DNA of 55,171 nucleotides from an uncultured bacterium (GCA_964623585.1 CAZURU010000002.1:1-55171); one strand, 5' to 3'; counted from the first letter of the stretch, positions 46,901-47,099 are shown. Numbers and translations are program-made. Notes: generated by a model not told the origin, from the letters alone.

Positions 46901-47099
46901 CTTTCCCCTCTTCCAATCTTCCAATCTTCCAATCTTCCAATCTTCCCCTCTTCCAATCTTCCAATCTTCCCCTCTTCCCCTCTTCCAATCTTCCAATCTT
47001 CCCCTCTTCCCCTCTTCCAATCTTCCCCTCTTCCAATCTTCCCCTCTTCCAATCTTCCCCTCTTCCCCTCTTCCAATCTTCCCCTTTCCAATCTTCCAT
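46901..47099. repeat. Octamer array: 22 perfect plus 3 degenerate 8-bp units of two types, A=CTTCCAAT and B=CTTCCCCT
   Basis: Perfect units span 46910-47085 in the order AAAABAABBAABBABABABBAB. The + strand is almost pure pyrimidine. Confidence 0.92.

Follow-up and report, generated by a model that had tools for sequence, protein, structure and literature searches.

A tandem octamer array upstream of a giant surface-protein gene is one locus of a genome-wide repeat family in sponge-symbiont Poribacteria

The tandem octamer array at positions 46901 to 47099 of the window (the whole 55,171-nt stretch of DNA that was analyzed) is one locus of a lineage-specific, genome-wide VNTR family with the unit CTTCC-A-[C/T/A]-[C/T]. 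The host is a Candidatus Poribacteria MAG, a sponge symbiont, and the array lies between a hemY-type gene and a gene for a giant secreted protein. A reading of the sequence alone had implied a one-off element tied to the promoter beside it and had proposed a genome search for the same octamers. Run here, that search found 63 loci in the source genome and, in a sister genome, hundreds; the arrays occur in either orientation and even in convergent gaps, which have no promoter, and the notion of a one-off promoter element is not borne out. We consider it probable that the array is a slippage-prone VNTR spacer rather than a switch dedicated to the giant surface-protein gene, and on present evidence the tract should not be read as such a switch. 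What emerges is a lineage-specific burst of octamers in an uncultivated sponge-symbiont phylum, comprising hundreds of arrays of up to several hundred bp each, in an expansion that is recent and confined to some species of one genus.

Anatomy and neighborhood of the array

On direct reading and parsing, the plus strand from 46910 to 47085 consists of 22 perfect octamers arranged as AAAABAABBAABBABABABBAB, where A (CTTCCAAT) occurs 12 times and B (CTTCCCCT) 10 times. Degenerate units close the array at both ends: CTTTCCCCT at 46901-46909 on one side, and TTCCAAT (47086-47092) and CTTCCAT (47093-47099) on the other. The perfect tract shows internal block duplications, with AABB present twice and AB three times. 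Tandem Repeats Finder (TRF) returns 46909-47098 with a period of 8, 23.9 copies, and a score of 233, which cannot be due to chance. Fold predictions for each strand of the array gave no self-structure (0 kcal/mol). The plus strand of 46901-47099 contains 27 A, 96 C, 76 T, and no G in 199 nt, making it 86% pyrimidine, and minus-strand ORFs of 97, 81, and 97 amino acids cross the array. The absence of G from the plus strand, the 8-bp period, and differences in unit number between relatives that are not multiples of 3 account for these open minus-strand frames, and a coding reading of them is rejected. The array lies in a 1,031-nt stretch (46692-47722) that is the widest interval separating long ORFs anywhere in the window, and it ends 19 nt before the -35 box TTGACA at 47119-47124. 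The unit count, order, and degenerate ends, the near-homopyrimidine plus strand, the three open minus-strand frames, the position in the largest non-coding gap, and the 19-nt distance to a strong -35 box had all been claimed from the window alone, and each of these descriptions stands.

Upstream, a plus-strand hemY-type gene for protoporphyrinogen/coproporphyrinogen oxidase (45240-46691; Pfam Amino_oxidase) follows genes for ferrochelatase and uroporphyrinogen decarboxylase. It served as the anchor for finding orthologous loci, and the 80 loci encoding relatives of its product all belong to sponge-symbiont MAGs of Candidatus Poribacteria, with the closest proteins 92, 90, 89, 86, and 85% identical. 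Between hemY and the array lies a mosaic of dispersed sequences, all recorded on the plus strand. The segment at 46700-46762, recognized by its dispersed copies and its fold, joins a MITE-end-like sequence to a REP-type hairpin, GCACATTCTGTTAGATTGTGC (46735-46755), followed by six T residues; this hairpin has 190 genomic copies and a predicted fold of -9.3 kcal/mol (z = -2.2), and together with the T-run it looks like a terminator. An AATCCTG-type short-repeat module, CTCTTATCCTGTAAATCCTAGTTCAGAAAAT (46829-46859), is one copy of a dispersed family with 46 genomic copies at no more than one mismatch to AATCCTGGTTCAGA. It is followed by a CCGCGT-type module, GCAGCGTCCTCCGCGTAATCCGCGATTCTGACAAACCACC (46860-46899), a truncated copy of a dispersed TIR-like element with 46 genomic copies at no more than two mismatches. 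Both types of module normally end in ...CAGACAAATAGAGTGACAA..CTTTACACACCC, in some cases as inverted pairs, and the octamer array begins where the truncated CCGCGT-type copy stops short of the terminal CTTTACACACCC of complete elements. The same module stands directly 5' of arrays in two related genomes, in identical form in G032 and near-identical form in G033.

Downstream on the plus strand, the spacer CCCTTTAAGTCGTTTTTTC (47100-47118), with a T-run conserved in relatives, separates the array from the -35 box. The conserved leader, or 5' region, of the giant gene follows (47119-47722), defined by genus-wide nucleotide matches; a query of 47100-47760 matched all 40 of 40 genus genomes at 72 to 95% nucleotide identity, though not over its full length in every one. 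The giant ORF itself (47723-55171) encodes a secreted Ig-like-repeat protein with Big_13, Big_15, and Y_Y_Y domains, exceeds 2,483 codons, and is still open at the end of the window. A permissive Rfam scan of 44000-49000 returned no matches.

The source genome is a MAG assembled from short reads into 910 contigs, with N gaps, and this limits how far the array can be trusted in detail. A typical read is too short to span the perfect tract, whose 176 nt consist of two near-identical unit types, so unit count and order may have been collapsed or mis-ordered. All of the more than 20 sequencing runs were available as k=31 contigs that fragment within the array (in the source-like DNA run as well) and mix in k-mers of other arrays; apparent variants at 47003 and 47057 can therefore not be assigned to this locus. 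Together with the fragmentation of the MAG and the location of 23 of the 63 array loci at contig ends, these features could point to unit count and order, or even the whole array, as a product of short-read assembly of repetitive DNA. We judge such an artefact to be very improbable. Run X1 yielded a 715-nt DNA contig identical to 47056-47770, last units included, and independent assemblies of relatives carry orthologous arrays. Two- and three-state arrays of the same kind also occur in long-read, nearly closed genomes of relatives, showing that this type of structure is not an artefact. The array type is real; only the exact number and order of its units remain uncertain.

A dispersed octamer family and its orthologous sites

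With a locus defined as at least three CTTCC cores at 8-nt spacing, the source genome (G000) holds 63 loci with about 700 units spanning 6.1 kb. Among the period-8 arrays reported by TRF, 27 of 35 have a CTTCC core, as do many TRF arrays with periods of 16, 24, 32, or 40. Across the family the core positions are 94 to 99% conserved, the tail positions are variable, and G is nearly excluded, a contrast that CTTCC-anchored detection inflates. Two or three interspersed unit variants per array are common throughout the family, so the two-state look of the window's array is the rule. Units with its own two tails account for 11% (AAT) and 7% (CCT) of the family. Our literature search turned up no published account of these repeats in Poribacteria.

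Only five genomes of the genus carry the family in abundance. Windows with a five-unit pattern number 757 in G007 (a long-read assembly of 8 contigs), 213 in G000, 173 in G063, 63 in G033, and 39 in G032, and are absent from most other genus genomes, single-contig closed ones included. G063 is rich in them and the closer genome G014 has none, a patchy spread that requires several independent bursts or losses.

By crude ORF calls, the arrays of G000 lie in gaps of every orientation: 6 between co-directional genes in the CTTCC sense, 10 between co-directional genes in the GGAAG sense, 7 between divergent genes, 7 between convergent genes, and 23 at contig ends. No clear polarity relative to genes was evident from these ORF-based calls. 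An association with a surface-protein gene is true at the window's locus; judged by gene orientation, no such preference shows family-wide, with arrays in every intergenic type including the 7 convergent gaps. Other dispersed repeats are often nearby. Strict-pattern REP hairpins lie within 150 nt of 13 of the 63 arrays against a rough expectation of about 7, which is suggestive only; arrays in G007 occupy the C/T-rich stretches linking REP hairpins (for example, GATTGTGC-TTCTTT-CTTCCACCC-...-CTTCC), and several in G000 start at the ...ACACCC ends of modules. Promoter-like sites reading away from arrays are found on the 3' (CTTCC) side in 16 of 50 cases versus 8 of 50 on the other side, and those reading into arrays are at the background level of 3 of 50 on each side.

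On the main contig of G007, starts of arrays with at least seven units show a strand bias of 20:6. GC-skew tests did not relate this bias to replication: twenty 20-kb samples of the contig gave no replichore signal, and skew followed the local gene strand. In the contigs of G000, the strand carrying CTTCC had negative GC skew 39 times and positive skew 22 times, a weak trend confounded by gene orientation.

Unit number was compared at four orthologous loci, a check on related strains that had been proposed along with the idea of a slippage-prone tract. It ranges from 0 to 3 up to at least 30 between relatives, within flanks that are 88 to 95% identical. At the window's locus, G014, G032, G033, and G000 have 3, 9, about 17 (partly degenerate), and 25 CTTCC units, respectively, between near-identical flanks, and slippage-prone behavior holds in this comparison between relatives. 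In G014 (HemY 85% identical) the site consists only of CCTTCCAATTTTCCACCCTTCCAATCTT, about three units; in G032 the nine units are followed by AATCCTG-type repeats; G007 combines a few CTTCC units with about 250 bp of a different, AATCCTG-based repeat of the same type as the module at 46829-46859, which has taken the place of most of the CTTCC array; and distant genomes keep the promoter and have no array. A and B units are common to the arrays of G000, G033, and G032, and the seed in G014 has A units. Since the 50 nt on either side are also nearly identical across G000, G033, and G032, these arrays represent one ancestral array that was reshuffled. Unit numbers also differ at the locus C48 (3, 13, 18, 30, and 37), and two other sites vary in presence and absence: C46 has an array in G000 and G033 only, and C166, between convergent genes, has only REP-like hairpins in G033 and G014 but carries two large arrays, inverted relative to each other, in G000 and G007. 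Ancestral seeds are visible at two loci, both just upstream of a -35 box and in the sense orientation.

These data support a model in which arrays would arise from seeds of two or three units in C/T-rich intergenic DNA, both beside REP hairpins and where MITE-like modules end in ...ACACCC, and would then grow and shrink by replication slippage and by unequal exchange of one to several units. Gain and loss on this scale would produce the interspersed variants, the AABB and AB block duplications, and the copy-number differences between close relatives. At the window's locus, a three-unit ancestral seed between the hemY stop codon and the distal promoter P1 may have grown to 25 units in the clade containing G000. 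The site is apparently an untranscribed spacer between the terminator-like REP hairpin and the promoters, and the main consequence of growth there was probably to displace upstream DNA by about 180 bp from the promoter region. According to this model, the array would be hypervariable DNA, selfish or neutral, whose effect in cis is modulatory at most. Whatever their origin, arrays of this family explain many of the contig breaks in short-read Poribacteria MAGs, as their frequency at contig ends indicates, and they are ready-made, high-resolution strain markers (VNTR typing) for symbiont populations.

Transcription beside the array and alternative readings

A scan identified a promoter-like plus-strand site, P1, at 47119-47147 (TTGACA, 17 nt, TG, CATAAT; 11 of 12 matches), which is conserved across the genus as TTGACA...TGTCAAT in close and distant relatives. 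A mirror-image promoter-like site on the minus strand overlaps it (47152-47125, also 11 of 12). A further plus-strand site, P2 (47216-47244; TTGACA, 17 nt, TATTAT), was indicated by the scan and by the starts of RNA contigs. In run X2, a sponge metatranscriptome whose sample also gave the best DNA match (run X1), a hemY RNA contig covering 46300-46756 at a depth of about 6 ends at the REP hairpin. An abundant contig begins at 47209 with a depth of 2,826, and the giant ORF reaches about 3,400 compared with a DNA depth of about 33 to 45. In a second sample (X4), the RNA contig begins at about 47265. In situ, then, expression of the giant gene is very high and begins at or close to P2 (about 47209-47250).

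Across the array edge and P1, depth in X2 was 0 over 47099-47192, no contig crossed 47099-47208, and a word search with 47086-47330 agreed that no RNA was detectable at the junction of the array and P1. Contigs of this kind show presence and not absence, and place any RNA from P1 or from its minus-strand mirror at most at an abundance about a thousand-fold lower. The RNA depth of the array itself is confounded by its many genomic copies. Relatives that do not have the array keep P1 and the leader, which means that the array is needed for neither.

The location of the tract invites the view that it is a contingency rheostat, in which slippage would change the number of units, shift an upstream activator, UP-like DNA, or read-through farther from P1 and P2, and thereby tune how strongly the giant surface-protein gene is transcribed. 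In favor of this view, the promoter 19 nt downstream of the array is conserved and near-consensus and belongs to a gene whose giant, secreted product is very highly expressed, the unit number of the array differs among all relatives examined at this locus, and the site upstream of P1 is a hot spot at which G007 and G032 carry an unrelated AATCCTG-type array. A precedent exists in hmw1A, whose expression falls as heptamer number rises (PMC8262952, PMC12721329). However, the hmw repeats overlap promoter boxes, are transcribed, and act via a hairpin in the 5'-UTR (PMC12721329), and the array here differs: it is outside both the -35/-10 spacer and the detected RNA, which begins at least 110 nt downstream. 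Contingency loci place their repeats in an ORF, a core promoter, or a 5'-UTR; this array is non-coding and 5' of the -35 box. Convergent gaps and many loci of housekeeping type have the same octamer as well, and array-less relatives retain promoter and leader. We therefore regard a rheostat as unlikely, and a real cis effect of the array on the giant gene is likewise doubtful. If such an effect were true, it would be the first contingency-type mechanism in Poribacteria, acting on a gene whose expression in situ is extreme. The excess of promoter-like sites on the 3' side of arrays genome-wide, which would also favor a rheostat, joins with the position of both visible seeds upstream of a -35 box as a hint of a promoter-linked origin or role. 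A broader version of the idea is that the family is an actively expanding, strand-biased "satellite DNA" used by the cell, with a protein or a non-B structure that recognizes the CTTCC core. Arrays just upstream of promoters would then be hypermutable insulators or rheostats, and the one in the window would set the output of the giant gene, whose expression ranks among the highest observed in this analysis, and create expression diversity in the sponge-symbiont population. We give this version little credence.

Two further readings concern the DNA or RNA of the array itself. A GGAAG/CTTCC core every 8 bp may bind a nucleoid or regulatory protein or form an H-DNA triplex, a G-quadruplex on the purine strand (from the GGGG tracts of B units), or an i-motif on the C-rich strand, and so act as an insulator or barrier between the terminator and the very strong promoter region. 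A core far better conserved than the 3-nt tail, with G kept off one strand, points to possible constraint of this sort (a protein site or non-B DNA) besides descent and drift, and the strand bias in G007 and the position between terminator-like hairpin and promoters fit the same picture. The minus strand has 11 GGGG tracts and eight relaxed G4 motifs (loops of up to 12 nt), and a G-quadruplex-aware fold gives -17.9 kcal/mol versus 0 without quadruplexes. Yet canonical G4 motifs (loops of up to 7 nt) are missing from the array, mirror symmetry is imperfect by eye, half of the units have A residues that break up the pyrimidine strand, and no candidate binding protein was identified. Gain, loss, and replacement of arrays by unrelated repeats at orthologous sites, along with their absence from most genus genomes, make a conserved cellular function unlikely, and we hold a structural or protein-binding role to be improbable. 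The sequence-only reading had also raised a repeat RNA; in the form considered here, the minus-strand promoter over P1 would transcribe the array into some 25 GGA motifs that sequester a CsrA-like protein or ribosomes. The 11-of-12 match of that promoter, the GGA in every unit of the purine strand, and the accessibility of motifs in an unstructured transcript are all compatible with such an RNA, but what data there are contradict it, and we consider it almost certainly wrong. The same-sample metatranscriptome has no contig on the unique junction (47099-47192) although the neighboring gene reaches a depth of about 3,000, arrays occur in both orientations, and promoter-like sites reading into them stay at background. 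The CsrA domain PF02599 is absent from the source genome and from seven other genus genomes, five of them closed, in searches where positive controls were found. A CsrB/RsmZ-type GGA-repeat sponge RNA is rejected on the basis of the missing junction contig, the absence of PF02599 from these eight genomes, and the empty Rfam scan. The preferred reading, a slippage-prone VNTR spacer, accommodates both the RNA data and the distribution of the family.

Relation to described repeat systems

The statement that no element of this form is known was too strong, given cyanobacterial STRR (PMC2670836), the Brucella HOOF-Print loci (PMC1183211), and the hmw1A/hmw2A tracts of Haemophilus influenzae (PMC8262952, PMC12721329). 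STRR and the HOOF-Print loci come closest in kind. The octamer family is an analogue of STRR, and not a member of that group. STRR are very short tandem units at many intergenic sites of one genome, and Mazel 1990 is a reference for them. Like the octamers, which are comparable to them in scale, STRR are lineage-specific and widely placed between genes. They differ in having 7-bp units of another sequence that can form hairpins and in belonging to filamentous cyanobacteria, whereas the octamer family has an 8-bp CTTCC-core unit, a strict purine/pyrimidine strand asymmetry, no self-structure, and a poribacterial host. The function of STRR is unknown, and an effect on transcript stability or coupling has been proposed (PMC2670836).

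In Brucella, the HOOF-Print loci present one 8-bp unit at several loci, with a hypervariability attributed to slipped-strand mispairing (PMC1183211). The likeness to the octamer family is in the length of the unit, its tandem arrangement at several chromosomal loci, and its variable copy number. HOOF-Print covers about 8 loci with few units each and a single unit sequence, unrelated in sequence and in phylum; the octamer family occupies between 63 and hundreds of loci, its arrays reach at least 30 to 75 units, and each array has several interspersed variants. Repeats upstream of a -35 box whose unit number alters promoter output are exemplified by the TAAA tract of Neisseria meningitidis nadA and the GAA tract of Mycoplasma gallisepticum vlhA, both of which are locus-specific, have units of 3 to 4 bp, and are experimentally tied to expression. 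They resemble the window's array as simple repeats upstream of the -35 box of a surface-protein gene with the core promoter untouched, but the octamer repeat is not locus-specific.

The closest functional precedent is the hmw tract, a pyrimidine-rich, short-unit repeat within the promoter region of a gene for a very large surface protein: (ATCTTTC)n at about 10 to 28 copies, varying in number, with two promoters (PMC8262952). That tract lies between its own P2 and P1, overlaps the -10/-35 boxes, and is transcribed into an RNase III-processed hairpin with a G-rich partner (PMC12721329). Its defining features are absent here, where the array is upstream of both promoters, has no detected RNA at its edge, and belongs to a genome-wide family; an inverted-repeat search for an hmw-like complementary partner gave only short matches, none in the array body. 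The surroundings of the array are like REP/BIME-type mosaics in bringing together the 190-copy REP hairpin and two TIR-like families of 46 copies each, although the octamer array, unlike a REP unit, forms no hairpin, and only 13 of the 63 arrays are within 150 nt of a strict-pattern REP hairpin. Among known kinds of repeat, the array is part of a dispersed VNTR family that most likely grows by slippage.

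Expression and leader of the giant surface-protein gene

The giant Ig-repeat surface-protein gene downstream of the array (window 47209-55171) shows extreme expression in the sponge metatranscriptome, where its RNA contigs reach depths of ~2800-3500, compared with ~6 for RNA of hemY, the gene upstream of the array, and ~33-45 for DNA. These RNA contigs have their 5' ends at 47209 in the sponge metatranscriptome run X2 and at ~47265 in X4, an RNA run from a second sample. When a stretch spanning the non-coding leader (47100-47760) was used as a query, each genome searched within the genus (40 of 40) returned a match at 72-95% nucleotide identity, with the full length not always covered, and even distant relatives retain the face-to-face TTGACA...TGTCAA layout of the promoter-like site P1. 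Conservation to such a degree is suggestive of a structured leader or RNA with a regulatory role; Rfam returned no match in a permissive scan of window 44000-49000.

Arrays at other loci and in relatives

On contig C48 of the window's own genome (4465-4992; L101, compared with L106-L109), a 37-unit octamer array directly adjoins what is left of a small gene, its final ~50 nt (MQEKKYFTVEEANEYIPELT...). The same gene is complete, with its own TTGACA promoter, in the relatives G007, G032, G033, and G014, and one endpoint of the deletion lies at the array. At another locus, two arrays face each other between two convergent genes (in the window's own genome, C166:8235-8591, L102; in G007, C1:1768950-1769700, L110), one in GGAAG orientation opposite one in CTTCC orientation, with a conserved centre, AGCGG(G)TAGTCGGTTT, between them. 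The facing structure exceeds 700 nt in G007, and the equivalent site in G033 and G014 holds REP-like hairpins only.

Across the 5.9-Mb contig C1 of the long-read genome G007, arrays of 7 or more units are biased in strand: 20 start on the plus strand versus 6 on the minus strand, a ratio that becomes 17:2 when only the first 3.6 Mb are counted. GC skew, sampled along this contig, tracked local gene strand and gave no replichore signal.

Intergenic repeats and dispersed modules

Downstream of hemY in G007, a composite tandem and inverted structure (L003:5546-5940) separates hemY from a nucleotidyltransferase-like gene as an insertion. It opens with a ~100-nt unit, ending GGGGCGGGGTT, that is present three times in direct orientation; a ~44-nt unit, also in three copies, comes next, starts TCCCCGCCCGCG and is partially complementary to the longer one. 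Further tandem hairpin repeats at window 30184-30292, 20992-21117, and 45090-45226, comprising a 38-nt REP unit (x2.9) and 63-72-nt units with CTGCTGGCGAGGTTTCCTAACCTCGC, belong to the window's repeat-rich intergenic landscape.

Next to the array (window 46829-46899) lie members of two dispersed module families, each with 46 copies genome-wide (e.g., C94:219, C253:38, C47, and C62:1072). At the 5' side the modules consist of short tandem repeats, either (CCGCGTNNT)n or (A/T)AATCCTG repeats, and both families share the 3' part ...TTCAGACAAATAGAGTGACAAnnACTTTACACACCC. Some copies form inverted pairs (C119, C123, and C133), and a TTGACA hexamer often follows the module within 10-40 nt. The modules resemble the ends of transposons or MITEs that carry subterminal repeats, and possibly mobile promoters.
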